NCBI GenBank assembly: GCA_965248445.1
Contig: CBDFJG010000002.1
Coordinates: 320,001-384,000, forward strand
Length of the DNA stretch: 64,000 bases
Origin: Planctomycetota bacterium
Lineage (GTDB): Bacteria > Planctomycetota > JAJSAM01 > JAJVHW01
Reading direction: 5' to 3'
A program made the position numbers and the translations under genes. This document shows positions 4,646-59,377 of this stretch, one piece after another. A model generated the notes under the pieces. That model worked only from the letters and a program-made list of their open reading frames with translations. It did not search any database and had not been told where the DNA came from. Positions within the stretch are counted from its first letter, which is position 1; each line of letters opens with the position of its first letter.

Positions 4646-4739
4646 CGCGGAGGCTCCTGCGAGCTCGGAGGACACTCCGGGGTACGTTGCTGCCGAATGA
4701 GGACCGCCAAGCGGGCCCGAGCCGATCGAGAGAGAAACC

Positions 4740-28651: not shown

Positions 28652-28860
28652 GTGCCCCCCCCCTCTGTCCTCTCGCGGGCTCTGACGCCGGTCAGAACCC
28701 GTCGTTCGTGGCGCGGAAACCGAAGGAGTGGGCGCCACGCTTTCGCCAGTCTCCCGCCGCCGGTCGCCGAGGCTAACACGGTCCCTGGGCGCGGGGGTGG
28801 ACCGACCCAGAGCCGCCAGCATGGCCCCCGACATGGCCCCAAGCTCTCGGTCGTGGCGGC

Positions 28861-29334
28861 ATGACACCGCGCCAACGATTGCCTCGTCCCCCGTGCGCCC
28901 GCTGCGGGCAGCCCGCGGGGCAGCGCCACAACAAGCACTGCTCTCGTGCGTGCGCTCGGGAGGCCGCTGCGCAGGGGCTTCGCAAGTTCGACCTACCCAA
29001 CGACGAACTCGCCCGGCTCGTGTGGGAATTCACGATGCCGGAGCTGGGTCGCCGGTTCGGGGTGTCTTCGACGGCGGTCGCGATCCGGTGCAAGAAGCGC
29101 GGCATCAAGACCCCTGTCCCGGGGTTCTGGAACGGACGCGCCTCTGGGCGCTTCGATGCGCGCGGACGGTTCCGTAATCAGATCGTCTGGTGCGGCTGCG
29201 GCTGTGGCGAAGTCATGAAGGGGCGTAGCGGCTACCGCCTGCAGGAGGCGGGGCTGGTCGAACTCACCGTCGCGCCGGGGTTGTCCGACTGGCGGCGGCT
29301 GCGGAAGTCCCCCACCCAGAGCAAGGAGACGTGA
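28861..29334 (+). CDS. Zn-finger plus HTH protein, phage-like
   Basis: CARC..CSRAC; ELARLVW..PELGRRFGVSSTAVAIRCKKRGIKTP..GFW. Confidence 0.6.
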   Translation: MTPRQRLPRPPCARCGQPAGQRHNKHCSRACAREAAAQGLRKFDLPNDELARLVWEFTMPELGRRFGVSSTAVAIRCKKRGIKTPVPGFWNGRASGRFDARGRFRNQIVWCGCGCGEVMKGRSGYRLQEAGLVELTVAPGLSDWRRLRKSPTQSKET

Positions 29335-29981
29335 TGGCGGAAGTGACGTTCAACGAGACGACGCTCCTCTTCGCAATCTCGCAGGGCTGGAAGCTGACCG
29401 GTGGAAGCGGCTCTGTGTTGTTCCACCGGCCCGACGGGACGACGTGCGGGCAGAGCGTCGCAGAGACGGAGATCCCGCAGTGGTACGCAGAGCAGCAGTC
29501 CCGCGTCACCGCTGGGGACGCGCTACGGGAGGCCGTTCAGTCGCCCACCGTCACTGAGTGGTTGGCGCTTGATGGGCCGTCCTTGGCGGACTCGTTCGCT
29601 CCCGCGCACGACGACACGCAAGCCGAGGCTTGGTGGCGGCGCGCTGCGTGGTCCCTTGCCCAGCAGCTCGCCGACCTGAAGAACGCGGAGAAGGGGGAGC
29701 CCGAGGAGGAGACAGTCCAGCGTTGCCGCGCATCCCAGACGGGCGTGGACAAGTTCTGCTCGCGGCCACCAGGTCACCTCGGCGACCACATCGCGCGCTT
29801 CGGCCACGAGGAAGCCGGTGCGCTCATGGAGTGCTGGCCGCAAGACGCCTGGATCGAGGAGGCGGCTGCGCGGGCATGGGATGAGCACAAGCGCCAGTTC
29901 CCTCGCTTCAGCGAGTGGATCGGCACCGAGCCGCTCGCCAGCATCATCCGCGACTGCTACCGGAACCGAGGCGCGAAGTGA
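29331..29981 (+). CDS. Phage-like hypothetical protein
   Basis: AAGGAG RBS; overlaps both neighbours. Confidence 0.6.
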   Translation: MMAEVTFNETTLLFAISQGWKLTGGSGSVLFHRPDGTTCGQSVAETEIPQWYAEQQSRVTAGDALREAVQSPTVTEWLALDGPSLADSFAPAHDDTQAEAWWRRAAWSLAQQLADLKNAEKGEPEEETVQRCRASQTGVDKFCSRPPGHLGDHIARFGHEEAGALMECWPQDAWIEEAAARAWDEHKRQFPRFSEWIGTEPLASIIRDCYRNRGAK

Positions 29982-30247
29982 GCCACTGCCAAGGGTGCGC
30001 CACGCTGGAGGCTGAGGCTCTAAGCCTTGCTCGCGACCATCAGTTCCAGATGGAGAAGCGCGTAGCGGCTGAGGCCGAGGTCAAGCGACTGACTGCGGAG
30101 CGGGACGACCACTCTCTCCGCGCCATCGGCCGACGCATCGTCGCCGAGGCGCAGGCCGACACGACACCCGGATCCCCGTTCGCCGCCCGCATTGAGGAGG
30201 CAGCCGTGCGCGTCTTGCGCGAGCAGCTCGAAGGGAGCGCCACATGA
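29978..30247 (+). CDS. Phage-like hypothetical protein (CxxC, coiled coil)
   Basis: GTGA overlap start, ATGA overlap end. Confidence 0.55.
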   Translation: MSHCQGCATLEAEALSLARDHQFQMEKRVAAEAEVKRLTAERDDHSLRAIGRRIVAEAQADTTPGSPFAARIEEAAVRVLREQLEGSAT

Positions 30248-30663
30248 GCGCTCGCTGTCCCCACTGCCAAGAGAGCAAGCGACTCACCGAACTCGAGGAA
30301 CGCGTCGCAACGCTCGAAGGGCTGATCAAGGGCACCGGCACCAGCGATCGCTTCGACGGCTCGCTCAGCACGATCGTCGAGACCGTCGGACGCCTCTGGC
30401 TCCTGAAGCCGGCCGTCATCATCGGCCCGCAGCGCACGAAACGCATCTCCGAAGCGCGCCAGGTCGTGTTCTACATCGCGTGCCTCTCTCTGGATGAGTC
30501 GCTCGTGGAGATCGGCCGGTGGCTTGGCGGGCGCGATCACAGCACCGTCATCTACGGCCGTGACCGAGCGACCGCGCGACTGGCGACGGACAGTGCGTTC
30601 GCTGATCGCGTGACGGGTGCGCTCGCTGCGCTCGGACTCCTGGAGACGGAGCAGGCGGCGTGA
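30244..30663 (+). CDS. Stand-alone DnaA domain IV (Bac_DnaA_C) HTH protein
   Basis: RTKRISEARQVVFYIA..SLVEIGRWLGGRDHSTVIYG matches the DnaA C-terminal signature. Confidence 0.88.
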   Translation: MSARCPHCQESKRLTELEERVATLEGLIKGTGTSDRFDGSLSTIVETVGRLWLLKPAVIIGPQRTKRISEARQVVFYIACLSLDESLVEIGRWLGGRDHSTVIYGRDRATARLATDSAFADRVTGALAALGLLETEQAA

Positions 30664-31718
30664 GCACCACGAAGATCGAGTGGACACGCGGCGACGACGG
30701 AACGCCGGGTAAGACGTGGAACCCGTTGCGCGGCTGCAGCAAGGTCAGCGCCGGCTGCAAACACTGCTACGCCGAGACGATGGCGATGCGCTTCTCCAAG
30801 CCGGGACTCTGGGGCCACGGCGTCGCCGATGCGAACGGTTGGACCGGCAAGGTCGTCCTCGCTCCCGAGAAGACGCTCACGGCGCCGCTGCGGTGGCGGA
30901 AGCCGTGTCGCGTGTTCGTCAACTCGACGAGCGACCTGTTCCACGAGCGGGTCGCGTTCGAGTGGATGGCGCTGATCTTCGCGGTTATGGCGCTCTCGCC
31001 ACAGCACACGTTCCAGTGTCTGACCAAGCGGCCGGCACGGATGCGCCGGTTCGTCGAGATGCTCACCCCACCAGGCGAGTCGCGTCGCCTCATGGCGGAC
31101 GCACTCGGGCGCTACCCCGTCGATCTCCCGAAGCGGAACGGCGGGTGGCAGGTCCCGTACGAGTGGCCCCTCCCGAACGTGCACGTCGGCTTCTCAGCAT
31201 CCAACCAGGAGACGTTCGACGCGCGCGTGGACGACGCCGTCGCGACGCCGGCTGCGGTCACGTTCGTCTCCCTCGAGCCCATGCTCGGGCCGGTGGATCT
31301 CACGGGCTGGTTCCCGGACCGACTCGCGCCCGGCGCGCGCTGGGCGGACTGCCTCTGCGCGGAGATCGACCCGAGTGACGTGCCCTGCGTCGTGTGCGAG
31401 GCGCAGAACGGAATCGACTGGGTCATCTGCGGCGGCGAGAGCGGCCCCGGCGCGCGGCCGTTCGATCTCAAGTGGGCACGGTCGGTTCGCGATCAGTGCG
31501 CCGATGCGGGCATCGCGTTCTTCCTGAAGCAGACCGGCGCCTGGCCGATGGACACGACGCATAACCTCCTCGACGCCGGGTCGTCGGCGTACGCGAACCG
31601 CTGCGCCACGGGTATCCACGACAAGAAGGGTGGGGACCCATCGGAATGGCCGGACGACCTGCGCACCTGCCGCGCGTTCCCCGCGTCCCCCCAGCAGCCC
31701 GGAGGTGCAGCGCAGTGA
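30660..31718 (+). CDS. Phage Gp37/Gp68 family (DUF5131) protein
   Basis: TKIEWT, WNP..GCSKVSAGCKHCYAE, FVNSTSDLFHE, LTKRP, SLEPMLG, DWVICGGESGPGARP, FFLKQ.G. Confidence 0.93.
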   Translation: MSTTKIEWTRGDDGTPGKTWNPLRGCSKVSAGCKHCYAETMAMRFSKPGLWGHGVADANGWTGKVVLAPEKTLTAPLRWRKPCRVFVNSTSDLFHERVAFEWMALIFAVMALSPQHTFQCLTKRPARMRRFVEMLTPPGESRRLMADALGRYPVDLPKRNGGWQVPYEWPLPNVHVGFSASNQETFDARVDDAVATPAAVTFVSLEPMLGPVDLTGWFPDRLAPGARWADCLCAEIDPSDVPCVVCEAQNGIDWVICGGESGPGARPFDLKWARSVRDQCADAGIAFFLKQTGAWPMDTTHNLLDAGSSAYANRCATGIHDKKGGDPSEWPDDLRTCRAFPASPQQPGGAAQ

Positions 31719-31741
31719 AAACCCATAACAGGAGGAACGAC

Positions 31742-32209
31742 ATGGACATCGAACGACTGAGACGATCCACGCTGCGTGTCGGAGGCGTCTGTAACACGAC
31801 GACCCGCCGCAAGGTCATCGAGGACGCCATCGCTGCGATCCAGGAGGACGGCGTCACGGCGCTCGCTCGTGAGTTCATGGGCGTGAAGCGGTACGCGCAC
31901 TTTGGAGACCAGCGCACGGACTGCGCGTACGGCATGGGGCCGCGGCACGGGTCCATCGCCTTCAGAGTCGGGCGCGACACGTCGCACCGCAGTCGCGCGC
32001 CGCGTCCAGACCTCGGCCCCGACGACGTGTACTTCCTCGAGTGCGCGCGGGACTTCCCCGGCGTCGAGCGTCCAGACAAGCACATCCGCAACCGCACGGT
32101 CCGCGACGGGCTGAGCACGGTGCTTGACGCGCTCGCGCGGGCCGAGGGCGAGGTGGAGCTGCTCCGCGGTGCGCTCACGACAGACGTTGAGGAACACGCG
32201 GTCGCGTGA
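31742..32209 (+). CDS. Phage-like hypothetical protein
   Basis: AGGAGG RBS before ATG 31742; GTGA overlap with the next gene. Confidence 0.6.
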   Translation: MDIERLRRSTLRVGGVCNTTTRRKVIEDAIAAIQEDGVTALAREFMGVKRYAHFGDQRTDCAYGMGPRHGSIAFRVGRDTSHRSRAPRPDLGPDDVYFLECARDFPGVERPDKHIRNRTVRDGLSTVLDALARAEGEVELLRGALTTDVEEHAVA

Positions 32210-32556
32210 GCACACTCCCGCCCTGCCACCGCCCCCGCGACTGCCCGCTCTGCGGGAAGGCCGCGATCCGCGCAGGTCGGAACCGTGCCGGCGTGCAGCG
32301 GTATCGGCTGAAGTGCGCGTGCGACCGCCCCGCGGAACCACCGCTCCCAACCGACTGCCCGCAGTGCGGGGGCAAGCGTTCCATCGTGCGTCACGGCATG
32401 CGTCGGGACCGCACCACGCGGTTCCGGTCGAAGTGTGGGCCGTGTGAGAACGAGGCGAGCCGCTTCAGTAGGGCGGGCCAGTCACTGCCGGAGTCGCAGC
32501 TGGACCCGTACCTGCAAGTAGCGATGGCGGTGAGCCCGCTGTGGAGGACGCCGTGA
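32206..32556 (+). CDS. Protein with two tandem InsA-like zinc ribbons
   Basis: CPLCG..IRAGRNRAGVQRYRLKCAC and CPQCG..IVRHGMRRDRTTRFRSKCGPC. Confidence 0.6.
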   Translation: MSTLPPCHRPRDCPLCGKAAIRAGRNRAGVQRYRLKCACDRPAEPPLPTDCPQCGGKRSIVRHGMRRDRTTRFRSKCGPCENEASRFSRAGQSLPESQLDPYLQVAMAVSPLWRTP

Positions 32557-32858
32557 CGACCGACCGGGAGATCGACGGGCTGCGCACCAAGCTCCGAGAG
32601 GCGAAGCGCGCCCAGGACGACGAATTCGGTCGGCGGCGTCGCGCCGAGAAGGAACGCGATGAACTCGCCGGACACCTCGGCAACGTCGGCAACGTGCTCA
32701 TCGAGTTCGGGTTCGACATCGACAAGGAGCGCGCGTGGGCGTTCATCCGACGGCGGCTCACCGACCACGCCAAGTGCCGAGACCAGGCGCAGGAGGTCTC
32801 CAACTTGAAAGCGCGAATCCGTGGTCTGCACGCGGCTGCGAACCGGAGGACGCCGTGA
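32553..32858 (+). CDS. Phage-like coiled-coil hypothetical protein
   Basis: GGAGGA RBS, GTGA overlaps. Confidence 0.55.
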   Translation: MTTDREIDGLRTKLREAKRAQDDEFGRRRRAEKERDELAGHLGNVGNVLIEFGFDIDKERAWAFIRRRLTDHAKCRDQAQEVSNLKARIRGLHAAANRRTP

Positions 32859-33106
32859 GCCGCCCTGCGAAACGCCTCCCCGTCCCCGGGCTCGAGGGCA
32901 CCTGGTGGCGCTGCCCCGTGCACGGCCTGACCCAGGACACCCACATGCTGCGCGGCATCGAGGACGACGAGTTCCACGCCTACTACTACTGCCGCGTCGA
33001 CACCTGTTCTCGCGAGCTGGAGGACGTCCAGGGCGCCGGCCGCGACATCCGGAAGATCTCGCACTGGAACAGGCCCCCGAAGACGAAGGGAGCCCTCGCG
33101 TCGTGA
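32855..33106 (+). CDS. Phage-like hypothetical protein (CPxH..CxxxxC)
   Basis: GGAGGA RBS, GTGA overlaps. Confidence 0.55.
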   Translation: MSRPAKRLPVPGLEGTWWRCPVHGLTQDTHMLRGIEDDEFHAYYYCRVDTCSRELEDVQGAGRDIRKISHWNRPPKTKGALAS

Positions 33107-33333
33107 GCTGGATCCACATGCGGCCAACCGCTTCCTCGGGTTCTCCACACGCCGACATGCGGAGCCTTGTGGGGGTGTCTGTCGGCGACAATGGAGGGCG
33201 TGTTCAGCGCTTCGACCGACGGCGTTCCGTCTCGTCCGTTCTCCCCTGTGACATCGTGCCCGTTCTGGGTCGCGCTGAACACAGCACGGGGTCGAGAGCG
33301 GGCGGGATGGAGAGCCGGGGAATCCGTCGATGA
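33103..33333 (+). CDS. Hypothetical protein, possibly degenerate
   Basis: Exactly fills the gap with GTGA/ATGA overlaps; protein composition is unconvincing. Confidence 0.3.
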   Translation: MSWIHMRPTASSGSPHADMRSLVGVSVGDNGGRVQRFDRRRSVSSVLPCDIVPVLGRAEHSTGSRAGGMESRGIRR

Positions 33334-33663
33334 GCGCGACGCTTGCGTCTCTTGAGCCCTGCTACGGTGGCCCCGCGCGCGAAGACCTGACGCGCCACAC
33401 GATCACCGACCTGGGTTTCCACAGCCACCTCGTGTACGTGATCTCGGCGCGGTGGCCCGATGAGCGCGGGGTCGTCTGTAGCTATGTCGGCATGACCCGT
33501 CGGCAATGGTGGCGGATCTCGGCGCACATCGGGAAGGGGTGGGAGGGCAAGACGCTATTGCTCGCGGCAGAAGCGGCAGGCGCGATGCTCTGGGTGGACG
33601 TCTACACCGAGACCCGCCACCGCTGCGTGCGCTACCTTGAAGCCGCACTCATCGACGCGCTAG

Positions 33664-35332
33664 CCGCATCTGTTCACGAGACGTCGCGATGACGGTGCTT
33701 TCGGAGTCCACAGGGTCAGATCTTGGCCAGGCGAGGGCGGATGCTGTCGTCGTTGCCACAAGGGCAACGCGAGTGAGCGGCCGAAACGGCGCGGATTCTG
33801 CGGTGTGGGCAGACCGTAGGCCGGGCGGTGGTGTGGCGGACGGCGCGGCGGGACGTCAGGTCGGCTTCGGGGATGCCAGCAGTCGTTGCGCGCAGCGCTC
33901 GAAGACGTGCTGCCAGGGCCACGACGAGGACATCGAGACCCAGATCCGGCGCGTCGTGATCCGCACGAGCGCGCCGATCTTGAGCAGCCGCAGGCGGATC
34001 GTGCCGGCTTGCGCACGCGCCATCTCGGTGCCGGCGAGACCGATGCGTCGCAGCGCACAGGTCAGGACGTAGGCCATGGCCGACATGGCCATCCGCACGG
34101 CGTTGCCCTGCATCGTGTGCACCGACAGACGGGTGCCGAAGAGCTCGAGCTGCTGCTCCTTGATGCGATTCTCCGCCTCGCCCCGGGCGCAGTAGAGCTG
34201 CTCGTAGAGACGCTTGCTGCTCCAGCTACGAGGCGGCAGATTGGTCACCACGAAGCGGGGATTGCGCTTGCCGCCCGGCAGGTGCTCGGCCTTGGCGACC
34301 ACGCGACGCCTCTGGCTCCAGCTCCCCAGCGTGGTCCAGGCAAAGTCGCGAAAGACCCGGGCTGCTCGGCCGGTCTGCACGGCACGGGCTGCGGCCTCAT
34401 CGAGCGCGTCTTCGACGTGTCGCTCAAGGCGCTCATTGCGCGCCATGCCCAGCAGGTAGAAGTGGCCGGCGGCCTCGCACCAGGCCATCAGCTCCTCGCG
34501 GCAAAAGCCCGAGTCTGCGCGCACGAGCACCTTGGCCCGGGGCCAGCGGCGCCGCAGACGTAAGACCAGCGCACGGAGCTCGTCCACGACTCCGCGCGCG
34601 GGATCTCTGTCAGCGGTCTGGAGCCGAGCGAGCAAGAGGTGCTCGCCGCAGAAGACGTACAGCGGCAGGTAGCAGTAGTGCCCGTAGTAGCCGTGGAAGA
34701 AGCGGCCCTCCTGCCGGCCGTGCAGCCGCACGTCGGAGTGGTCCAGGTCCAGCACGAGCAGGCCCGGATCCTCCGGCCCCATGGCCTCGCAGAAGACGTC
34801 GCTGAGCACGCTGTCCACGCGCTCCTGGTCCATCTCGATCTTGGCGTAGCGCGTCTGTGCCGTGGCGCCGAGCTGCGTGGTCTCGAGCCGCGAGAGCGTC
34901 GGGTGCGTGGCCAGAGCACCCTCGCGCTTGCCGCACGCCGCGGCAAACAGCGGGTCCTTGCCGACATGGTCGTGGTCCACCAGATCCTCGTAGCCCGCGC
35001 ACAGCCCGAAGACCCGCTGACGCAGCATCTGGCCGACCGTGTGCTCGACCCGACGCGGGTCCCGGTGGTCCCCGAAGCAGCGCGCAAACCGCGAGAGCAG
35101 ATCGATGCGACGATCGACCCGCTCGAGCAGCAGCACGCCCCCGTCGCTCGTCACGGTACCGGCGTCGAAGCGCGTCACCGCGGTGCGTCCACAGATGCCC
35201 GCGAAGAGGGTCCCCTGCGGGCTACAGTCTGTCGTCATCGGGCCGGCGCTCCTGTCGGTGCAAGTACTAGCGAGTACGAGCACTTAGACAGACGACGGCC
35301 CGCTCAGATTCCCGGCTGGTGAACGATTCGGG
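33664..35332 (-). mobile_element. IS1380-family element, copy A (1669 bp)
   Basis: Ends CCCGAATCGTTCAC / GTGAACAGATGCGG (element orientation); CTAG duplication at 33660-33663 and 35333-35336. Confidence 0.95.
33856..35238 (-). CDS. IS1380 family transposase
   Basis: TSDGG.LLL, QRVFGL.AGYED, LDLD, FFHGYY..YCYLPL, RADSGF, YCARG.AENRIKEQ. Confidence 0.96.
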   Translation of the reverse strand: MTTDCSPQGTLFAGICGRTAVTRFDAGTVTSDGGVLLLERVDRRIDLLSRFARCFGDHRDPRRVEHTVGQMLRQRVFGLCAGYEDLVDHDHVGKDPLFAAACGKREGALATHPTLSRLETTQLGATAQTRYAKIEMDQERVDSVLSDVFCEAMGPEDPGLLVLDLDHSDVRLHGRQEGRFFHGYYGHYCYLPLYVFCGEHLLLARLQTADRDPARGVVDELRALVLRLRRRWPRAKVLVRADSGFCREELMAWCEAAGHFYLLGMARNERLERHVEDALDEAAARAVQTGRAARVFRDFAWTTLGSWSQRRRVVAKAEHLPGGKRNPRFVVTNLPPRSWSSKRLYEQLYCARGEAENRIKEQQLELFGTRLSVHTMQGNAVRMAMSAMAYVLTCALRRIGLAGTEMARAQAGTIRLRLLKIGALVRITTRRIWVSMSSSWPWQHVFERCAQRLLASPKPT

Positions 35333-35583
35333 CTAGCGCCGTGCGAGAACACGCAGAACCACCCGCCCTCTGGCGCGGTTCCATGCGCTCACCGCAGGCC
35401 GTTGGAGATCGCCTTCCCCCGCCTCTACGAGATCGAGTCGTGGGGCGGAGCGATAGAGCATGTGCGCGCCCAGCGGCTCAAGTCGGTCCAGGGGCGGGTC
35501 GCTCGCCTGTCCGATCGCGACTACGAGTCCTTCCTCGTGTGGCTGCGTCGGCACCACCAGGAGCGCGCGAGGGAGCGCGCCGG

Positions 35584-36234
35584 GTGACACGCCAGTGGAT
35601 AGCCCTCAGCACCGGGTTTCCGATGGACCTGGAGACCCTGACCCTCCCCGTAGAACACCGCTATTCCTGGGTAGTTCTGCTGACGATTTCGAAACGAGAG
35701 GGCTGGAACGGGACCGTGAACGGGACAGTCATCGCCCCCCTACTGGAGGCGTTTGCGGGGCTCTCCAAGCGTAGACAGGGTGTGTTCTTTCGCGCCCTGA
35801 CTGCCCTTGGTTGGGTGGAACAGGTTGGCCCTAACTACGTGATCCAGAAATGGGATAGGTGGCAGAAGGATCCGGGATCTCCGGCTCGAGCGAAGAAGGC
35901 GCGGGACAAGAAACGTCACGGAAGCGCGCGTGACGAAAATCGTTCGGAAGTAGCTCTGACAGGGACAGGGACAGGGACAGAACCCCCCCCTCCCCCTAAC
36001 GAGGGGGAGGCCCGTCGCTTCGCTCTTGCCTGGGCCGGCTCCCGGTCCCGCTTGAAGGACGGCCGGCTGAAGGACCTGGCATCGGCCGTGCACCGAGATC
36101 GCGCTGCCGAGTCATCGGGGAGCCGCTCGATCGACTGGGTAAACCAGCGTCGCCGCATCAAGACCGAGGACCCGAGCGGCTTCATCAGCACCGAGAGGAT
36201 GCTCGGCCGTGCTGCCCGAAGGGCCGCGCCGTGA
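35584..36234 (+). CDS. Putative phage replication initiator-like protein
   Basis: N-terminal WIALSTGF..D..RYSWVVLL winged-helix-like pattern, WDRWQ, basic helix, TGTGTGT linker; visibly lower GC than neighbours. Confidence 0.55.
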   Translation: MTRQWIALSTGFPMDLETLTLPVEHRYSWVVLLTISKREGWNGTVNGTVIAPLLEAFAGLSKRRQGVFFRALTALGWVEQVGPNYVIQKWDRWQKDPGSPARAKKARDKKRHGSARDENRSEVALTGTGTGTEPPPPPNEGEARRFALAWAGSRSRLKDGRLKDLASAVHRDRAAESSGSRSIDWVNQRRRIKTEDPSGFISTERMLGRAARRAAP

Positions 36235-36408
36235 CGCTCCGAGACGAGATCGTCGCGTTGCGCGCACTGCTCAGCGACGCCATGGACGCGCTGTCGGCAG
36301 AGTGTCAACCTGTTGAAACCCCCGAGTGCCAGTCTGACGGACTGGCAGGAAGAAGGGCGTCAGGCGCGGGGCGTGGTTGACAACCGTGCCCCGCGCGTGG
36401 AGCCTGTG

Positions 36409-36480
36409 TGGAGCCGACGGGAATCGAACCCGCGAACCTGACTTTCCAAGTGTCTGGCGCCTACCAAGGGTCTCGGCCCC
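36409..36480 (-). ncRNA. Non-canonical tRNA-like RNA (Ala/tmRNA-type acceptor stem)
   Basis: GGGGCCG/CGGCTCC-A acceptor with G3:U70; T-arm GCGGG-TTCGATT-CCCGT; irregular D and anticodon arms; no encoded CCA. Confidence 0.7.
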
Positions 36481-36667
36481 ACGGGTGACGGGCAGGAGCC
36501 CTCGCGGGGAACATCAACGCTGCGGGGGCTCCACTTCTTGATGGAGAGCGGACATGAGCGACGACGAGCCAGATGAGGATCGTCCGCTCAAGATCCACGG
36601 CGATTGGAAGGAAGCCCTGCGGAAGGGCGGGACGTGTCAACGACTTTGAGACACCGCGTCTTCGAGT

Positions 36668-37696
36668 TTAGTGAGCAGCCTCCTGTGTCGCAGTCTCCAG
36701 CGCCGCGAGTTCCCGGGCCGGCGGGTTGATCCACGTCTCGGTCGGCAGAGCCGGCGGCGTCGGCGCACGGCGCACGAAGCGCTCGGGATGCGCCGCGTAC
36801 GCGGCATCGAGCACGACCGAGCGCGCGGCGACGGCCGCTTCGGCGCGGCCGTAGTGCACGGTCTCGGGCGTCAGCAGCCCGAGACTCGAGTGACGATGCT
36901 CGCGGTTGTACCAGTGGAAAAAGGCGCGGCAGTGCGCCCGCGCGTCCTCGATGCAGCCGAAGCGCGCTGGGAAGTCCGGCCGGTACTTCAGCGTGCGGAA
37001 TTGGCTCTCGGAAAACGGATTGTCATTCGACGTGTACGGCCGGCTGTGCGACTTCGTCACGCCGAGATCGGCGAGCAGAAAGGCCACCGGCTTGCTGATC
37101 ATCGGCGGCCCCCGATCGGAGTGGATCGTGAGCTGCTCCGCCGCGATCCCCTGCTTCTCGCAGGACTGCTCGATGAGTGCCGTCGCCAGCGCACCGCTCT
37201 CGCAGTCCGCCAGCATCCAGCCCACGACGTTGCGGGAGTAGATGTCGAGCACGACGTAGAGATAGAAGTAGCTCCACTTCACCGGGCCGCGGAGCTTGGT
37301 GATGTCCCAGCTCCAGACCTGGTTCGGGGAGGTCGCGAGGAGCTCGGGCTTCTTGTACGCGGGATGACGCAGCTGGTTGCGGCGCTCACGCACAGCACCA
37401 GCCGCACCGAGGATGCGGTACATCGTGCGCACCGAGCACAGGTAGCGTCCCTCGTCGAGCAGGATCGCCCACGCCGCAAGCGGTGACAGATCGCAGAAGC
37501 GCTCCTCGCTCAGCACCGCGAGTACGGTAAGACGCTCGTCGATCGTGAGGGCGCGCGGCGAGCGCCGGCGCGGCTGCTGGGGCCGGGGGCACGTGCGTGC
37601 CGTTCGGCGCCGATAGAGCGTGGCGCGCGTGACTCCGAGCGCGCGGCACGCGGGGGCGACGCCCACGCGTCCCCCCAGCTCCTCCGCCGCAATCAC
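36668..37696 (-). CDS. IS3-like transposase OrfB (rve DDE integrase)
   Basis: WSWDITKL, LDIYSR, HSDRG, DNPFSESQFRTLKY; GTG start overlaps the orfA stop. Confidence 0.93.
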   Translation of the reverse strand: MIAAEELGGRVGVAPACRALGVTRATLYRRRTARTCPRPQQPRRRSPRALTIDERLTVLAVLSEERFCDLSPLAAWAILLDEGRYLCSVRTMYRILGAAGAVRERRNQLRHPAYKKPELLATSPNQVWSWDITKLRGPVKWSYFYLYVVLDIYSRNVVGWMLADCESGALATALIEQSCEKQGIAAEQLTIHSDRGPPMISKPVAFLLADLGVTKSHSRPYTSNDNPFSESQFRTLKYRPDFPARFGCIEDARAHCRAFFHWYNREHRHSSLGLLTPETVHYGRAEAAVAARSVVLDAAYAAHPERFVRRAPTPPALPTETWINPPARELAALETATQEAAH

Positions 37697-38211
37697 GTGT
37701 CGCTCCCGCTCGTCTCGGGCATCTCGATGCCCAGCAGCCGTGAGACTTTTCGCTGCACGTCGATGATCACCTCGGCCGTCTCGAGCCGCTTCTCGAGACG
37801 GGCGACTTCGCGCTCGAGCTGCTCGTTGCGCTTCTTGAGCGCACGGTCCGGATCGGGCTTGGGACCACGCCGCTTGGGCGAGAGCGCCTCGAGCTGGCCC
37901 TGGTCCCGCGCGCGCCGCCACGTCAACAAGTGCGAGGAGTACAGCCCCTCACGGCGCAAGAGAGCGCCGATCTCGCCGGGCTTCGTGCACGCGTCCGCCG
38001 CCTCGATGATCCGTAGCTTGTACGCGGCGCCAAAGCGCCGCCGCGAGGCGCGCGGCACGACCTCGGGGTCGCGCACCCCAACGTCCCCCGGGCCGCGCGC
38101 CCCGGGGGAGCCCCCTCCGCCTCGATCGCGCTCGCTATGCTCGCCCTCCCTCGGCTCCGGGATCTCCCCCGGCGCTGTGTTGTGGTTGTTCGTCATCGCT
38201 GGTTCCTCCAC
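37693..38211 (-). CDS. IS3-like transposase OrfA (HTH plus coiled coil)
   Basis: RRRFGAAYKLRII, LLRREGLYSSHLLTWR, IIDVQRKVS. Confidence 0.9.
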   Translation of the reverse strand: MEEPAMTNNHNTAPGEIPEPREGEHSERDRGGGGSPGARGPGDVGVRDPEVVPRASRRRFGAAYKLRIIEAADACTKPGEIGALLRREGLYSSHLLTWRRARDQGQLEALSPKRRGPKPDPDRALKKRNEQLEREVARLEKRLETAEVIIDVQRKVSRLLGIEMPETSGSDT

Positions 38212-38273
38212 CGCCCTGCACAGTAATCATCCGTGGGGTCGGTGTCTCAGCCACGTTGGCACAGAGGGGGGAC

Positions 38274-38873
38274 TCAAGACCCCGCCGCCGCCAACCGACG
38301 ACGACGAGCCTGAGACTGAGGGCTCGGAAGGTGCTTCCCGTAAGCCGAAAGAACCGCCTGCCTGACCTGTTCTCCGTCGTCGTCTCGGCGGTGGTTGTAA
38401 CGGAAGGTCGCGGCGCCCAGGTACGTGGGCAGGTGGCAGGGCGAGACCGAGTGCCACGTCCCGTAGACCGACCTGCGGAAGATCCCGAAAAAGCCCTCGA
38501 TTGAGTTCGTCGTGGTCAGTTCGCGAGGGCCGCCCGGTCTGCGACTCTCCCACCGCGCGTACTCGTTCGCATCGTGGTTCACGGTGCGGTGGTCGGCGAA
38601 GTACCAGGCCAGGCGCTTGTAGACGTTCGCGCCGTCGGTGTGCAGCGTCGCCCACGCGGCCACGTTCGAGAACAGCACCTTGCGGAGCGACTTTGCCGTC
38701 ACGTCCGTCGTGATCGCGGCGCGCACGTCGCCTCCACGCGAGAGCATCCCAATGACCGGGATGGTGCGCCCCTTCGCCTCCCGCCTCTTCCACCGCTTGC
38801 CGGTCCGATACGTGCGGCGGCGCCGTTTTCGGCCTCCGACCCACAGTTCGTCGGCGGACGTGACTAATGTCTT
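38274..38873 (-). pseudogene. IS1595-family (ISXO2-like) transposase, 5'-truncated
   Basis: ADELWVGG, LHTDG, HRTVNH, TNSIEGFF, GTWHSVS..HL..YL..FRYN. An in-frame stop lies just upstream of the first motif; zinc ribbon and HTH are missing. Confidence 0.88.
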
Positions 38874-40085: not shown

Positions 40086-41585
40086 GTAACCGTTCACCCC
40101 TTGACAGCGTGTGAGCCTCAGCGTGCGACGGGCAGCGGGACCATGACGGGCGGGTCGGCGCCGGTGAGGTGCGCGGCGACCGAGTCGGCGAGGAAGTCGA
40201 AGACTTGGTCGCCACGGCGTCGCAGCGTGGCCGCGGCGGTCAACACGCGCTCGGCGAAGCGGAGTCCGCGAGCGGACTGGCTTCCGAAGGAGCCCTTGCG
40301 CCAGAGCACCGCTTTGCGGACCGCGCGCTCGGCGGCGTTGTTCGTCGGACTCACGTCCTGGGTCCGCGCATAGGTGAAGAGGGCGACCACGCGGGGGCGC
40401 AGATGGTTGGCCAGAGCCGAGTCGTCGTTCGCGATCAGTCGCTCGAGCCGTCCGCGCAGCACAGCGGCTTCGCCTTGCAGCCGGTCACGGTCGCCGTGCT
40501 CACCGAAGAGCCGGTAGCTGCGCATGACCGACTGCGCGATCATGACGCCCTTGTTGCCGAAGCGGCGATGTCCTCGCGGGCCTTCGGCCAGCGCACGGAA
40601 GGCGCGCTCGATGTGCGCCCAGCAGAGCTGGCGGCGGGCAAGTGGGTGTGACTCGTAGGCACCCATCCGGTCGCTGATCACCGTGCCACCGAAGCGCCGC
40701 CCGATCAGCCGCCCTTTCGCCTTGGCACTGCGGCGGCGATCGATCCCGAAGGCTGTGGCGTGCTCGCTCTCCGCCGCCCACAGCCAGCACACCCGGCCCC
40801 GTTCCTTCCACGACGTCTCGTCCACGTTGGCTCGCAGCGACGTGCGGACTGCCCCGAGGGCTTCGAGGTACGACGAGTGCAGAGCGTCACTGAGCCGACG
40901 CTCACAGTCGCTGATCTTGCCCAGCGACATCTTCACACCGAAGATCTCACCGAGCAGCCGCTGCGTCTCCCGCACGCTCACGCGGTACACGCCGCGCAGC
41001 GCGCCGGCAAGTGTGGTCAGCCGCGGACCGAAGGCCCCGGTCGGCACGCCATCGGGCAGGACCGCCGTCGTGACCGCACGACAGCGCCGGCACCGCGCCT
41101 TGTGCAGCCGGTGCTCCCGCACCGTGACGAGCACGCGCGGGAGCACCGTCACCTGGTGCCGGTACGGATCGCCGATGCCCTGCTCGAGATCGTCGTGTCC
41201 GCACGCGTCGCAGAGGTCGGGACGGTGCTCCTTGGTCTCATCGACGTTGGACGGATCCACCAGCTCGCGCGCCGTGCCCTCATGGCCCGGCTGTCCGCCC
41301 TGCTGGCGACCGCTACGCGGCCTTCGGCCGCGACGGCGCTTGGACCACGCCGGGTCCGACGACGGAGGCCTCGAGCTGTTGCGGGAGTCACGCTTCAGAC
41401 GCGACTCGAGCTCGTCGATGCGGCGCAGATGCTTCGCTTCGCGACGCTCCAGCTCCTCGATCCAGGCCAGAAGGCCCTCGACCATCGCCCGCAGATCCTC
41501 GTCCTGCCGCTCGCCCACAACCTCTTGATCGACCGATGGCCGAACGATCTGGATCCTGGCTCGCGACGAAGGGGTGAACGGTTAC
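40086..41585 (-). mobile_element. IS66-family element (single-ORF type)
   Basis: Perfect 17-bp IR GTAACCGTTCACCCCTT; no flanking direct repeat. Confidence 0.93.
40118..41518 (-). CDS. IS66 family transposase
   Basis: NSSRPPSSD, GGQPGHEG, VDETSW, RQLCWAH, PTNNAAERAVR. Confidence 0.96.
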   Translation of the reverse strand: MGERQDEDLRAMVEGLLAWIEELERREAKHLRRIDELESRLKRDSRNSSRPPSSDPAWSKRRRGRRPRSGRQQGGQPGHEGTARELVDPSNVDETKEHRPDLCDACGHDDLEQGIGDPYRHQVTVLPRVLVTVREHRLHKARCRRCRAVTTAVLPDGVPTGAFGPRLTTLAGALRGVYRVSVRETQRLLGEIFGVKMSLGKISDCERRLSDALHSSYLEALGAVRTSLRANVDETSWKERGRVCWLWAAESEHATAFGIDRRRSAKAKGRLIGRRFGGTVISDRMGAYESHPLARRQLCWAHIERAFRALAEGPRGHRRFGNKGVMIAQSVMRSYRLFGEHGDRDRLQGEAAVLRGRLERLIANDDSALANHLRPRVVALFTYARTQDVSPTNNAAERAVRKAVLWRKGSFGSQSARGLRFAERVLTAAATLRRRGDQVFDFLADSVAAHLTGADPPVMVPLPVAR

Positions 41586-45057: not shown

Positions 45058-46215
45058 ATGCGTTTCTCGCCCGTTCTCGCTGTCGCGCTCGTTGCCGTCC
45101 TGGCCACGCCGTCATTCGGGTGGATCTCGGTCGAGAACCAACCCCTCGATCACGCGCTCTACGCACAGCACGGCCCCCGCGCCGTGCTGGCTGGGACGAT
45201 CCGCGAGGTCGTCGTGGAGGAGGGCCAACTACGGGAGCTCTCGCCCCCAAAGTCCGAGATCCGATTCGAGATCGAGCAGGTCGTGAACGGTGCGGGAGCC
45301 AAGGCCGGACACATCACGCGCTACTCCACGCGCTCGTTCAGCTGGCCCACTACGCTGCTTCCGCTCGAGGCCGAGCAGAGGTGCATCCTTGTCGTCGATC
45401 CGGAGCGCCGAGAGGGCTTCGACGGCCGCCTGATGACCGTGCTGCCCTGGCGCGGCGGCCGTCTCGCGGCGGCCGAGGACCGCGCGGGCACCCTGCGCGC
45501 CATCGCGTCCGAACTCGCTGCACAGATCGCGGTCGTGGATGACGACTTCGCGAAGAAGCGCGAACTCGTGATCCTGGCCGCTCCCCTGCTCACGGCGGAG
45601 CAGGCCACCAAGACACTTCGCCCGCTCGTCGATCACAAGGACATCTGGCTCTGCCGCGCGGCGATCGCCGGGCTCGCGCTCGCGTCACCGACCTACGAGA
45701 ACCTAGCGCGCGCCGTCGCCGACATGGAGGCGTTCGCGGAAGCGACGCCGAAGGCTCACCTGATCGACGGCATCGAACACGGGGCCAGGTACGCGGCCTA
45801 TCCGTTCTACTTCCGCAACTACCGTTGGCTCCGCACGGACTGGAGCATGGAGCAGCGCGAGCGCGTGAGGGCTCACATCTGGCTGCACCGCACGGTCGCG
45901 CGGACCGTCACCAACCACGCGAACTCCCGGCTTGAGTACGGCATCCGTCCGCTGTGCACGAACGGGGACGCCACCGACCTCCGTCAGCTGTACGAATACT
46001 ACATGGAGAGCGAGACCAACGGACGGGGCGCGATCCACGAGAGGCCGTCCACGCGCATGGCCGTCCTGCGCCGCCTGACGAAACTGCTCAACATCGAGTT
46101 GATCGCCAGCGAGGTCCCGGAACTCGGCTGGCACCTCGCCGGCATCGCGAAGGAACCGGAGCAGCTCGAACTGATCCGCGACGCTCTCAAGCGCCGCGGC
46201 GTCGACTGGCTCTAG
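45058..46215 (+). CDS. Secreted hypothetical protein
   Basis: GGAGG RBS, signal peptide; its stop TAG lies within the IS1380 target CTAG. Confidence 0.7.
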   Translation: MRFSPVLAVALVAVLATPSFGWISVENQPLDHALYAQHGPRAVLAGTIREVVVEEGQLRELSPPKSEIRFEIEQVVNGAGAKAGHITRYSTRSFSWPTTLLPLEAEQRCILVVDPERREGFDGRLMTVLPWRGGRLAAAEDRAGTLRAIASELAAQIAVVDDDFAKKRELVILAAPLLTAEQATKTLRPLVDHKDIWLCRAAIAGLALASPTYENLARAVADMEAFAEATPKAHLIDGIEHGARYAAYPFYFRNYRWLRTDWSMEQRERVRAHIWLHRTVARTVTNHANSRLEYGIRPLCTNGDATDLRQLYEYYMESETNGRGAIHERPSTRMAVLRRLTKLLNIELIASEVPELGWHLAGIAKEPEQLELIRDALKRRGVDWL

Positions 46216-47884: not shown

Positions 47885-47919
47885 CTAGCAGTGTGTTGAA
47901 CAAGTCGGCGCGCCACCCG

Positions 47920-59360: not shown

Positions 59361-59377
59361 TCACCCCTCCTCCACGC

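Follow-up and report, generated by a model that had tools for sequence, protein, structure and literature searches.

The tRNA-like gene and its surroundings

The window, by which we mean the whole stretch of 64,000 nucleotides that was analysed, carries on its minus strand a small tRNA-like gene lying downstream of the remnant of an IS1595-family transposase gene, with an IS3-family element inserted between the two (Table 1). The RNA had been singled out in an earlier note on this DNA, and its sequence (minus strand, 36480 to 36409) was recovered letter for letter. An identical twin copy of the gene lies at C4:1915916-1915987 in the same genome.

Table 1. Features at the IS1595 remnant, with positions counted from the first nucleotide of the window
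Feature	Position	Strand	Basis or remark
tRNA-like gene, non-canonical, 72 nt	36409..36480	−	sequence and covariance-model scores
IS1595-family transposase remnant (DDE domain and C-terminal tail only)	38274..38873	−	PF12762
Spacer, transposase stop to tRNA-like gene	36481..36627	−	149 nt without the IS3 element and its 3-bp duplication; 1352-1500 in L004
Nested IS3-family insertion	36628..38268	−	orfA 38211..37693, orfB 37921..36668; rve, rve_3, HTH_Tnp_1
GC-rich imperfect hairpin (24-nt arms, 79% complementary)	36356..36404	−	starts 5 nt past the 3′ end of the tRNA-like gene
Candidate inner right inverted repeat, TTTCAACAGGT	36308..36318	−	91 nt beyond the 3′ end of the tRNA-like gene

The top half of the RNA is of the tRNA-Ala type (G1-C72, G2-C71, G3:U70, G4-C69, A73 and a standard T-arm). 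Its acceptor stem has 7 bp, which in sequence numbering are G1-C71, G2-C70, G3.U69, G4-C68, C5-G67, C6-G66 and G7-C65, where G3.U69 is G3:U70 in tRNA numbering. The G3:U70 wobble pair together with A73 is the established identity set of alanyl-tRNA synthetase (AlaRS), and both are read from the sequence of the window gene. The T-arm (GCGGG/UUCGAUU/CCCGU) is canonical, with a 5-bp stem and a loop of the UUCRANY form. The bottom half is rebuilt, without U8, with a small D hairpin that keeps the elbow GG, and with an arm presenting UGG. Position 8 is A; the D hairpin around UUGGU has 2-3 pairs as against the 4 bp of a canonical D stem; and the anticodon-like stem (C-G, C-G, A.A, G-C, A-U, C-G, A.A) has 3 pairs flanked by A.A mismatches where a canonical stem would have 5 bp. 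The loop, CUUGGAA, has 7 nt and displays UGG, a proline anticodon. The variable region is 3 nt long (UUC) instead of 4-5 nt, and CCA is not encoded at the 3′ end. By the usual combination of U8, 4-bp D stem, 5-bp anticodon stem and 4-5-nt variable loop the gene is not a canonical tRNA. It is not a tRNA-Pro either (NGG, G37 and a C1-G72-type end), for it does show UGG but carries A at position 37 and ends in a G1-C72 pair; the host tRNA-Pro(UGG) starts CGGGGCG and has G37. An alternative 8/4 split of the acceptor and T helices can be read from the window gene and its relative L166, where A8 could pair with the U at the end of the T stem and replace a G.U pair. In the other family members the 7/5 split is, on the same reading, equal or better.

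The transposase remnant belongs to the family named in the earlier note, since its DDE_Tnp_IS1595 domain is recognised with E 1.8e-27 (window 38873..38277), but it is only a remnant: a three-frame reading finds stops upstream and the zinc-ribbon N-terminus is missing. A quick tree places it on a long branch together with the transposases of L166, L192, L258 and L207. The spacing of about 150 bp, with both genes on the same strand, was confirmed in the IS3-free twin L004 (contig C4), where 1351 is the last position of the transposase stop and 1501 the first of the RNA. The nested IS3 is one of about 20 near-identical copies in the genome and is no part of the tRNA system. A small antisense ORF on the plus strand, which starts at about 36554 within the spacer and is interrupted by the IS3, matches nothing in Pfam or PHROG and is without counterpart in the related loci. 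The hairpin downstream of the tRNA-like gene is possibly a terminator or part of the end of the element; it is not called by a simple terminator scan because it has no T run. The sequence TTTCAACAGGT agrees with the clade motif ACTTGTTGAAA, taken as its reverse complement, at all positions but one, and has its sole match in the 3.9-kb region here and none in a 300-kb control. Its assignment as a repeat is tentative, since neither the outer right repeat nor the left repeat was found for the window element and the core spans 11 nt only.

Relatives at L151, L274, L230 and L192 are intact elements, having the zinc ribbon, two inverted repeats and an 8-bp target duplication; the window element falls short of this and is dead, with its transposase truncated and the IS3 between transposase and tRNA gene. 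The two identical gene copies persist through a recent segmental duplication, which runs from 28715 to at least 38568. Around the element lies phage-like DNA (DUF5131, phrog_2045, phrog_13608). The neighbouring ORFs of 297 and 158 aa match no Pfam or PHROG family, and a search of 400 genomes of the phylum gave no convincing homologue for the 204-aa C-terminal part of the former. Nothing was returned by simple scans for promoters and terminators around the twin copy, which tells little as the organism has 69% G+C. Among sequencing runs, the stretch was found in four, all of a single study, and no RNA run was listed.

Detection by standard tools and covariance models

ARAGORN called no gene within the window, and no Rfam family reached its curated cut-off (gathering score) at the tRNA-like gene. 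It may be noted that the Rfam tRNA cut-off is also missed by the intact relatives in L151, L166, L175, L185, L212, L218, L145 and L163, and that ARAGORN passes over the intact relatives as well. Below the cut-off of 47 bits, the Rfam tmRNA model (RF00023) matches both ends of the gene with 36.4 bits (E 5.6e-13 on 701 nt), 310 positions of the model being replaced by 32 nt. A covariance model built without the window sequence (R2) gives 46.9 bits for the window copy and its twin (E ~1e-6 over the 5.4-Mb genome), and another model, R1, gives 40.0 bits for the gene. Neither model is specific to the family: the host tRNA-Ala genes reach 39.9 and 38.4 bits with R2, a margin of only 7 to 8.5 bits under the window copy, a canonical tRNA-Ala of another genome (L146) reaches 48.3 bits with R1 and, with R2, the same 46.9 bits as the window copy, and a Saccharibacteria family also scores about 40 bits with R1. 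The free-energy fold is ordinary (z -0.70, with 43 of 200 shuffles folding equally well). The ARAGORN calls of about 90 nt in the host genome (Gly, Thr and Phe) are false positives within coding DNA.

A family of tRNA-like genes beside IS1595 transposases

The same fold pairs with IS1595 transposases at nine independent loci; this is the comparison proposed in the earlier note, and it supports the idea put forward there of an RNA borne by a mobile element. Searches starting from the RNA found relatives beside IS1595 transposases in L151, L166, L167, L090 and L145, the only 5 of 107 loci so obtained to hold such a transposase. A search starting from the transposase in 80 viral loci found four more (L175, L185, L212 and L218, with L218 and L090 being the same contig). 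The Ala-type gene is present in 4 of these 80 viral loci and in none of 21 IS1595 loci of the same phylum. Two further loci, L163 and L164, have the RNA with no transposase within 3 kb. Several members were found with patterns that force GGGG...CUCCA, and four with the loop itself forced. A loop-free viral scan was saturated by ordinary tRNA-Ala and mini-tmRNA-like genes and added only L342.

Over 12 sequences, in an alignment that was fitted to the model, 94.6% of the cells of the paired columns can pair, as against 70% in shuffles (0 of 500 shuffles reach 94.6%), and 16 of the 23 pairs are altered on both sides. Pairing is complete (100% of cells) in the acceptor and T helices, none of the 12 members has a variable region outside the range of 0-3 nt, and G3:U70 is present in 12 of 12, including L175, L185, L212 and L145b, which were found independently of this pair. 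The loop UGGAA occurs in four members found without forcing it (window, L151, L175 and L185). The arm of the window gene reads A.A / G-C, A-U, C-G / A.A / CUUGGAA and that of its best relative, L151, reads A.G / C-G, G.U, G-C / A.G / CUUGGAA. The A.A mismatches of the window gene coincide with purine-purine positions in L151 and are therefore not obviously decay. We defined the family by G3:U70, A73, a purine at position 8, a UGG(U) D hairpin, an arm of the form R.R / 3 pairs / R.R / CUUGGAA, a variable region no longer than 3 nt and an IS1595 transposase not more than 2 kb away. The window gene shows every one of these, and its R2 score of 46.9 bits may be set against 38-40 for host tRNA-Ala and 46.9 for a foreign one. 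We consider it very probably a member of this family.

Some of these genes lie within the element. In L151, inverted repeats matching at 24 of 26 positions and an 8-bp target duplication (TCAAGAGG) enclose the transposase, the tRNA-like gene and two ORFs. The gene of L212 is enclosed by repeats matching at 28 of 31 positions, and that of L185 is internal to the right repeat. L274, L230 and L192 carry Leu-type tRNAs within repeats that have 8-bp duplications. The gene of L167 is outside the left repeat by about 545 nt; that of L145 is also outside, and there the left repeat abuts the 3′ end of a tRNA-like gene. No convincing inverted repeats were found for L166, and target duplications were not evident for L212, L177, L200 and L207. 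On comparing the loci, the orientation of the gene and its side relative to the transposase vary, such that all four arrangements occur; in four loci the RNA runs antisense to the transposase, and in one the two are divergent. The tRNA-like gene of the L151 clade is preceded by a conserved mini-ORF that ends in Pro-Pro-stop.

Other tRNAs of IS1595 elements and the codon match

Of 101 IS1595 loci, 13 have tRNA genes called by ARAGORN. In most of these tRNAs a Leu- or Ser-type body with a long variable arm bears a foreign anticodon (UGG six times, AGG once and the ochre-reading UUA twice). With the Rfam tRNA model 11 such genes lie above the cut-off; a twelfth match is a tRNA-Thr beside the L167 transposase. 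The bodies found with IS1595 (Ala, Leu and Ser) all belong to synthetases that ignore the anticodon. At one column of the transposase tail the codon is CCA in all 6 UGG carriers and CCT in the AGG carrier. Taking two columns together, 27 of 32 proline codons are CCA or CCT, as against 343 of 1105 elsewhere, though these counts ignore shared ancestry. The window transposase remnant is without any CCA codon. No transposase column was found where carriers have proline and others a conserved Ala or Leu. In both UUA carriers the transposase ORF stops with TAA in the column that holds the CCA/CCT site. This ochre match is weak, as TAA is also the stop in 4 of 13 other ORFs listed for comparison and the read-through tails are short.

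Proposed function and alternative explanations

The best explanation in our view, to which we give a probability of a little over one half (about 0.55), is that the gene is an irregular but genuine tRNA gene carried as cargo by an IS1595-family transposon. It would most likely be charged by AlaRS and read CCA/CCG. The tRNA-processing enzymes would excise the RNA, CCA would then be added, and AlaRS would charge it through the acceptor stem, disregarding the anticodon. The charged RNA would read CCA/CCG codons, by which the element would provide its own decoder for that codon. The earlier note had offered four functions for the RNA, and Pro-to-Ala decoding fits best among them, because of the canonical 7-nt loop and the recurrence of UGG on unrelated IS1595 tRNA bodies. 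That the RNA of the window gene itself decodes on the ribosome we hold to be somewhat short of an even chance. Its compatibility with the ribosome is unproven because the anticodon stem has 3 pairs between two purine-purine mismatches and not 5.

Some mobile elements may, then, bring their own means of reading codons. In a wider and more tentative form, which we regard as possible but rather doubtful, IS1595 elements would carry private decoders, that is, anticodon-blind Ala, Leu or Ser bodies whose anticodons (UGG, AGG, UUA and others) match fixed codons of the transposase. The element would so set the reading of these codons in its own protein and, collaterally, in the host; in one clade the tRNA would be autoregulated by the Pro-Pro-stop leader in the manner of an attenuator, and the window gene would be an Ala-type UGG relic.

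The RNA could instead be a tRNA mimic working off the ribosome, the upper half recruiting tRNA enzymes and the conserved loop binding something else. The target could be ProRS or an anticodon nuclease (the RNA being a decoy), a partner among defence or toxin-antitoxin cargo, or the transposase; or the RNA could be an RNase P/Z cutting signal for a neighbouring transcript. Defence-like cargo is found near three relatives, namely DUF3800 in L151, a methylase-nuclease fusion, a SocA/Panacea antitoxin domain and SIR2 in L167, and Abi_C and HicB in L164. The irregular anticodon stem is consistent with such a role, as is A37, which differs from the host tRNA-Pro loop UUUGGGA. Also, the portions of the paper on irregular bacterial tRNAs used here (PMC5389517) describe some near toxin-antitoxin genes that did not translate in E. 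coli. Against this, the transposase is the only protein conserved beside the RNA among the related loci, the same UGG loop is found on unrelated Leu-type bodies that pass the tRNA-model cut-off, and one would expect G37 to be retained in a decoy aimed at enzymes acting on tRNA-Pro. The matching codon kept in the transposase gene also points to decoding. A processing signal for one fixed mRNA is at odds with the variable orientation, and the signal for the transposase mRNA suggested in the earlier note cannot be general, because of the four antisense loci and the divergent one. We find the off-ribosome mimic unlikely on the whole.

Another explanation concerns the linkage and not the function. 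The tRNA-like genes may be preferred landing neighbourhoods of IS1595 in phage or island DNA rather than its cargo. This would agree with the occurrence of all four arrangements, with the genes outside the repeats in L145 and L167, with the RNAs lacking a nearby transposase in L163 and L164, with the phage-like DNA around the window element and with the scatter of carriers on the transposase tree (7 changes, at least 5 of them forced, in a quick tree). It does not account for L151, where repeats and an 8-bp duplication enclose the gene, nor for L212 and L185, for the Leu-type tRNAs inside duplicated ends in L274, L230 and L192, or for the candidate right-repeat core beyond the window gene. We rate it improbable, and prefer the reading of the gene as cargo.

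The reading of the gene as a degenerate copy of a host tRNA-Ala or of the ends of tmRNA, or as the remnant of an integrase attachment site, with no family and no function, is largely refuted and very improbable. The failure of ARAGORN and of the Rfam cut-offs, the ordinary fold energy, the place among dead insertion sequences and the nearest host tRNA being a tRNA-Ala(UGC) would all suit decay, and the two copies, being identical, give no sign of selection. But that nearest host tRNA is identical at only 55 of 72 positions, so that the near-identity to a host tRNA which the earlier note had named as grounds for doubt does not exist, and 40 related genomes gave nothing beyond a T-arm match. Homologues with compensatory changes occur in distant phyla and viral contigs, and the A.A mismatches, the short D arm and A8 match the same positions in L151. 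An attachment-site origin was considered and rejected, as there is no integrase beside the gene and the gene lies inside the duplicated segment, not at its edge.

Least credible of all, and barely to be entertained, is the mini-tmRNA, also raised in the earlier note. This would be a tmRNA tRNA-like domain without a message, alanylated, bound by SmpB and acting as a decoy or tag-less rescue factor. In its favour are the match of the tmRNA model to both ends, the presence of G3:U70 and A8 in tmRNA, and the many viral-contig genes of 75-81 nt that have tmRNA-like 5′ and 3′ ends and no message part. Yet the match covers only generic acceptor and T-arm parts common to tRNA-Ala, and a host tRNA-Ala outscores the window gene with this model (42.9 bits). 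The alignment of the D region is with tRNA-Ala (UUGGUAG-GCGCC) and not with the tmRNA D-loop, and the family retains a 7-nt anticodon loop. Those viral genes are of another length and have other 5′/3′ junction motifs, and no IS1595 transposase adjoins any of them; the sole IS1595-adjacent match of the loop-free scan, L292, is the family member L175.

If these RNAs decode, a common insertion-sequence family spreads missense and nonsense-suppressor tRNAs between genomes and is a mobile source of deliberate mistranslation, possibly a first step towards codon reassignment. This would also explain the recurrence of irregular tRNAs near transposases and defence genes. The small tRNA and the codon at a fixed transposase site form a testable pair. 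The class is invisible to ARAGORN and to the Rfam curated cut-off and is therefore missing from annotations, and tRNA scaffolds that are naturally independent of the anticodon are of interest for genetic-code engineering.

Comparison with known systems

The window gene resembles the host tRNA-Ala genes in its first four acceptor pairs, in A73, in the T-arm and in the UUGGUAG of the D-loop. It differs in having A8 for U8, a D arm shorter by three nucleotides, two purine-purine mismatches in the anticodon arm, UGG in place of NGC, a variable region of 3 nt and a 3′ end without encoded CCA. The tRNA-like domain of tmRNA has a G3:U70 stem, A8, a T-arm and a weak or absent D stem, and is alanylated by AlaRS. 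The window gene resembles it (RF00023) in G3:U70, A8, the T-arm and the weak D stem, but has no message domain with a tag reading frame and no pseudoknots, keeps an anticodon loop, stays below the model cut-off and is not called as tmRNA by ARAGORN, which finds the real tmRNA of this genome (169.5 bits) on contig C3. The IS1595 family includes passenger-gene elements, the "transporter IS" (subgroup names per ISfinder). In the relatives studied here we see the zinc-ribbon DDE transposase, inverted repeats of 20-30 bp, 8-bp duplications and genes placed before the right end, with the difference that the passenger in elements related to the window is a tRNA-like gene. No description of tRNA cargo in IS1595 elements was found in the literature searched.

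Among natural tRNAs, the allo-tRNAs and other irregular bacterial tRNAs likewise have a body identity (Ser, or Ala through G3:U70) that is mismatched with the anticodon (Mukai et al. 2017, Nucleic Acids Res, PMC5389517; review PMC7609411). In the portions of these sources drawn on, they have longer anticodon stems and small D loops, and some G3:U70 examples inserted Ala in E. coli. The allo-tRNAs, as given there (PMC5389517), have an 8/4 or 9/3 acceptor/T split and a long variable arm, whereas in the window family 7/5 is always possible, with 8/4 as an alternative only, and no member has a long variable arm. A UGG loop with A37 within IS1595 inverted repeats is not described in the same portions of PMC5389517. 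The dual-identity tRNA-ProX, which with ProRSx mistranslates sense codons in Streptomyces and Kitasatospora, is toxic under some conditions and beneficial under others (Schuntermann et al. 2023, J Biol Chem, PMC10404621). In the parts of that article used here, tRNA-ProX has a proline body, bears Asn, Thr or Ala anticodons and lies beside a special ProRS. The IS1595 tRNAs are its mirror image, lying beside a transposase and no synthetase gene, with a proline anticodon on an Ala body (Leu or Ser in the related elements).

The tRNA-like gene and its setting

On re-reading, the 72 nt on the minus strand at window 36480..36409 agreed letter for letter with the sequence in the earlier note. They form a 7-bp acceptor stem that has G.U as its third pair and is followed by an unpaired A, a T-arm GCGGG/UUCGAUU/CCCGU, a short D hairpin around UUGGU and a loop CUUGGAA closed by the stem C-G, C-G, A.A, G-C, A-U, C-G, A.A; position 8 is A. 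ARAGORN called no gene in the window and no Rfam family matched the gene at its curated score. The minimum-energy fold is unexceptional (z -0.70; 43 of 200 shuffles fold equally well), and a search of 40 related genomes gave matches of T-arm length only.

The host genome (5.4 Mb, 69% G+C, four contigs) has its own tmRNA and 56 ARAGORN-called tRNA genes, several of which are false positives. It is crowded with near-identical insertion sequences (about 70 IS4-type, 50 IS66-type and 20 IS3 copies, mostly >99.5% identical), and copies of these amplified families also lie in the window (see Table). The IS4 copy at 33660-35336 and the IS3 copy at 36628-38268 are recent insertions, the same segment being uninterrupted in L004, its twin on host contig C4. 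The order in this twin shows a 149-nt spacer between transposase stop and tRNA-like gene, all on one strand, so the earlier placement about 150 bp downstream and co-oriented is right. The transposase assigned to IS1595 does carry the DDE domain (PF12762, E 1.8e-27), but it is only a remnant with no zinc-ribbon N-terminus and with stops upstream. It may be noted that, apart from the two insertions, the segment that runs from 28715 to 38568 or beyond is present twice in the genome, and therefore the RNA gene's two copies, being identical, are uninformative on selection. Its phage-like part (28715-33453) is duplicated at C3:1678775-1683513 with 99.96% identity, the second copy of the phage-like segment lies on two contigs, with the break at an IS3 copy, and a third, diverged relative lies at C3:125044-127500 near tRNA-Ile and tRNA-Ala.

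Table. Coordinates of features in the window, in its twin segment L004 and in loci from other records (other L handles)
Feature	Location	Remark
Copies of amplified insertion sequence families	33660-35336, 36628-38268, 40086-41585, 46199-47891, 59377-60916, 62774-64000	six, window
DUF5131/phrog_2045 gene	30606-31715	phage-like, window; in duplicated segment
phrog_13608 gene	31565-32206	window; in duplicated segment
IS1595 transposase, C-terminal part	stop at L004:1351	strand of tRNA-like gene
Spacer, transposase stop to tRNA-like gene	L004	149 nt
tRNA-like gene, twin copy	L004:1501-1572	strand of transposase
Imperfect GC-rich hairpin	L004	next after tRNA-like gene
Two converging ORFs	L004	after hairpin; no family matches
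Clear relative	L151	Acidimicrobiales genome bin
Clear relatives	L166, L167	metagenome contigs
Clear relative	L163/L170	phage-like contig with terminase and portal genes
Clear relative	L164	pattern scans
Clear relative	L090	pattern scans
Clear relative	L145	Vicinamibacterales bin, two tandem copies
UGG anticodon	L192:2212-2297
UGG anticodon	L200:2076-2166
UGG anticodon	L207:871-958
UGG anticodon	L258:2059-2145	genome of same order as window's organism
UGG anticodon	L260:948-1020	73 nt, short arm
UGG anticodon, plus CCA on serine-type body	L274:1171-1377
AGG anticodon	L177:3559-3645
UUA (ochre-reading) anticodon	L180:4099-4184
UUA (ochre-reading) anticodon	L230:3586-4202
CGC or UGC on long-armed bodies	L243:3452-3566 and 4719-4808; L255:68-154
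Leader module	L151:3072-3330(-), L175:2617-2876(-), L185:3223-3482(-), L167:2983-3242(-)

Relatives beside IS1595 transposases

A pattern requiring GGGG, a purine-8 context, the T-arm and CUCCA gave more than 120 stretches in viral contigs, 25 of the 80 fetched being without an ARAGORN call; a narrower pattern over one genome per species gave 19 loci, and a metagenome-contig scan in which CUUGGAA was also required gave 6 (2 viral-contig matches are the same records). Among these RNA-first loci only 5 of 107 contain an IS1595 transposase, which by Pfam and tblastn adjoins the RNA in L151, L166, L167, L090 and L145. On using an alignment of five transposases of this kind (33-59% identical) as query, 80 viral loci were obtained, and a strict script scan with two covariance models found an Ala-type gene (G3:U70) in four, L175, L185, L212 and L218, the last on the same contig as L090; there was none in 21 IS1595 loci taken from the window's phylum (17 other genomes). 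Counting each contig once, RNA and transposase are paired in nine loci (window, L151, L166, L167, L145, L090/L218, L175, L185, L212), so the fold does recur beside IS1595 homologues, as the earlier note had proposed to check.

Two covariance models were built, R1 from L151, L185 and L167 with the structure supplied by hand, and R2 from seven members with the window left out. The window copy scores 40.0 bits on R1 and 46.9 on R2; a canonical tRNA-Ala of another genome scores 48.3 and 46.9, and the host tRNA-Ala genes score 39.9 and 38.4 on R2. Both models are thus unspecific for the family, so membership has to be judged by shared derived features and context. In 12 members aligned to R2, 94.6% of cells pair; shuffles give 70%, none of 500 attaining the observed value, and slid registers 42-61%. 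Both sides change in 16 of the 23 pairs, by which the predicted fold is conserved with compensatory change. In this model-fitted alignment G3:U70 is invariant, and 8 of 12 members have the loop UGGAA. Several members were found with patterns fixing the first four pairs; L175, L185, L212 and the L145 copy L145b were not, and have G3:U70. The UGGAA loop was found without forcing in four members (window, L151, L175, L185); the loop is a different one in L212, L218 and the two copies of L145. An L151-type body with the loop UCUAGAU (anticodon UAG) is also seen at L342:2001-2069(-), where no transposase lies within 2 kb.

tRNAs on anticodon-blind bodies and the codon match

ARAGORN found tRNA genes in 13 of 101 transposase-first loci, most of them abnormal (see Table): foreign anticodons stand, for the most part, on long-armed bodies (83-97 nt) of leucine or serine type. 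CUUGGAA is found among their loops in L192 and L274, and CCUGGAA in L200 and L258. The Rfam tRNA model places 11 of the abnormal genes above its cut-off, a twelfth match being the tRNA-Thr beside the L167 transposase, and no member of the Ala-type class reaches that cut-off. Inverted repeats enclose the abnormal tRNAs in L177, L200, L207, L274, L230 and L192, with 8-bp duplications visible for the last three. AlaRS, LeuRS and SerRS do not read the anticodon. Bodies of anticodon-blind synthetase types thus recur on IS1595 elements; all the bodies are of these types, a hallmark of natural missense or nonsense suppressors.

In one column of the transposase C-terminal tail (GKRLTYRxP...) CCA stands in all six Leu-type UGG carriers and CCT in the single AGG carrier, other sequences having I, L, T or P; in the aligned Leu-type carriers the anticodon therefore matches the codon at a fixed site. 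L151, L175, L185 and L174 have CCA one column earlier, and at an N-terminal column, where the family consensus is Ile, CCA is used by 6 of the 7 window-clade members with Pro, including L166. At these two sites (columns 417 and 876/877 of the alignment of L174-L276 transposases) the Pro codons are CCA 15, CCT 12, CCG 4 and CCC 1 (CCA/CCT 27 of 32), against CCG 468, CCC 294, CCT 178 and CCA 165 elsewhere (CCA/CCT 31%), all raw counts uncorrected for shared ancestry; CCA/CCT also occur at these sites in loci where no tRNA was found. No alignment column has Pro in carriers where others keep a conserved Ala or Leu. The window remnant has no N-terminal site, a divergent tail and no CCA codon.

A leader module precedes the RNA gene on its own strand in L151, L175, L167 and L185, and is absent from the window, L166, L163, L164, L212, L218 and L145. 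Its parts are a GC-rich hairpin that covaries, GGAGG as ribosome-binding site, a mini-ORF 11-15 codons long in which an Ile/Val run is followed by Pro-Pro(-Pro-Arg-Arg)-stop, and a 40-67 nt spacer holding a strong hairpin in L151 and L167. The peptides are MTIVIIVIIPP, MTVILIIIVIPP, MIIILIIVVPP and, with the ATG of the leader alignment taken as start, MTVVLIIIIKPPPRR. The leader looks like an attenuator that would sense Pro-codon decoding, matched to the UGG anticodon.

Our best reading, to which we give a probability of about 0.55, is that the gene is a cargo tRNA which would be processed, given CCA, alanylated through G3:U70 and made to read CCA/CCG codons; we infer its transcription, processing, charging, use by the ribosome and any benefit to the element. 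That the RNA instead works off the ribosome as a mimic or decoy, perhaps in connection with the defence-like cargo (DUF3800, a methylase-nuclease fusion, Panacea, SIR2, Abi_C), is possible but unlikely.

Cargo or insertion neighbour

The terminal repeat of the L151 clade is GGTGATGTGTGACTTGACAAACCCA. In L151 both repeats (24/26) and an 8-bp target duplication enclose the transposase, the tRNA-like gene and two ORFs over 2,887 bp; the gene lies inside the right repeat in L185, and 28/31 repeats enclose it in L212, 113 nt from the right end. Apparent linkage to IS1595 thus extends to a place inside the repeats in these three loci. L174 and L176 have repeats and duplications and no tRNA-like gene. 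The repeats around the gene in L151, L212 and L185 make it improbable that IS1595 simply prefers neighbourhoods holding such genes, a view favoured by L167, whose gene is ~545 nt outside the left repeat, by L145, one copy of which has its 3′ end directly against the left repeat, and by the varying position of the gene. It is downstream of and convergent to the transposase in L151, L175, L185 and L166, divergent in L167, and on the transposase strand in the window, L212, L218 and L145 (listed as upstream; the L004 order has the transposase first). The same view is favoured by a quick maximum-likelihood tree of 104 transposases, on which 7 changes are needed to account for the carriers, 5 or more of them forced by supported branches (so few suffice in only 12 of 500 label shuffles). 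In L145:2790-3068(-) two tandem Ala-type genes with different loops lie upstream of the transposase, with a right-repeat-like motif between them and the left repeat next to the 3′ end of the second, which suggests nested or tandem insertions.

In most loci we take the gene to be cargo, subject to turnover and rearrangement. The window transposase fragment forms a long branch in a well-supported clade with L166, L192, L258 and L207, whose repeats read TTCCGGAACTATGTACTTGTTGAAA; the inner 11 nt of this repeat occur, with one mismatch, 91 nt beyond the window RNA gene, the only match in 3.9 kb, with none in a 300-kb control. The left repeat of the window element was not found.

Host tRNA decay and tmRNA likeness

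Plain decay of a host gene is very improbable. The nearest host tRNA, tRNA-Ala(UGC), is identical at only 55 of 72 positions. The D-loop and acceptor resemble host tRNA-Ala and not tmRNA. The A-A mismatches described earlier are present and are not obviously decay, because L151 has purine-purine oppositions at the same positions: below the elbow the window reads A.A / G-C, A-U, C-G / A.A / CUUGGAA and L151 A.G / C-G, G.U, G-C / A.G / CUUGGAA, the same odd arm design. We suggest that the outer A.A may be the counterpart of the 26-44 purine pair in ordinary tRNAs.

At relaxed thresholds the tmRNA model matched both ends of the gene (36.4 bits against a curated cut-off of 47; E 5.6e-13 on 701 nt), with 32 nt in place of 310 model positions. 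A mini-tmRNA is nevertheless scarcely credible, since the many viral genes of 75-81 nt that have tmRNA-like ends but lack a message part differ from the family in length and junction motifs and never adjoin an IS1595 transposase, the IS1595-adjacent L292 being the family member L175. Such viral genes (74-81 nt; L026, L028, L040, L053, L059, L066 and L078 are examples) have a capped helix replacing the message domain between tmRNA-like 5′ and 3′ ends, and make up most of the 31 ARAGORN-uncalled matches of a loop-free viral scan (e.g. L314, L317, L322, L291). A separate conserved 68-71-nt tRNA-like gene with encoded CCA (GGGGTACAGACTGGTGTCGCG...) occurs in bins of Saccharibacteria and other Patescibacteria (L144, L146, L147, L150, L152, L155-L159, L161, L162; ~3001-3070 in most); the anticodon that ARAGORN assigns to it differs from genome to genome, and its acceptor needs a bulged U in order to pair.

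Comparison with known systems

In the literature searched on IS1595 with tRNA, passenger genes or non-coding RNA, and on mistranslation with transposase, no tRNA cargo of IS1595 is described, and the passages of PMC9569102 considered draw no link between mistranslation and transposase. The closest published cases in that literature are a set of irregular tRNAs (Mukai et al. 2017, PMC5389517) and the mistranslation system tRNA-ProX/ProRSx (PMC10404621). The former paper describes allo-tRNAs and irregular tRNAs, including G3:U70 examples that inserted Ala in E. coli, and one pseudogene overlapping a transposon-related ORF. By its definition, the Ala-type family, without a long variable arm, falls outside the allo-tRNAs, and it is ambiguous between 8/4 and 7/5 pairing; with respect to tRNA-ProX/ProRSx it is the mirror image. 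Newly added here are the Ala-type UGG class with its examples delimited by repeats, the relic in the window and the leader peptide.
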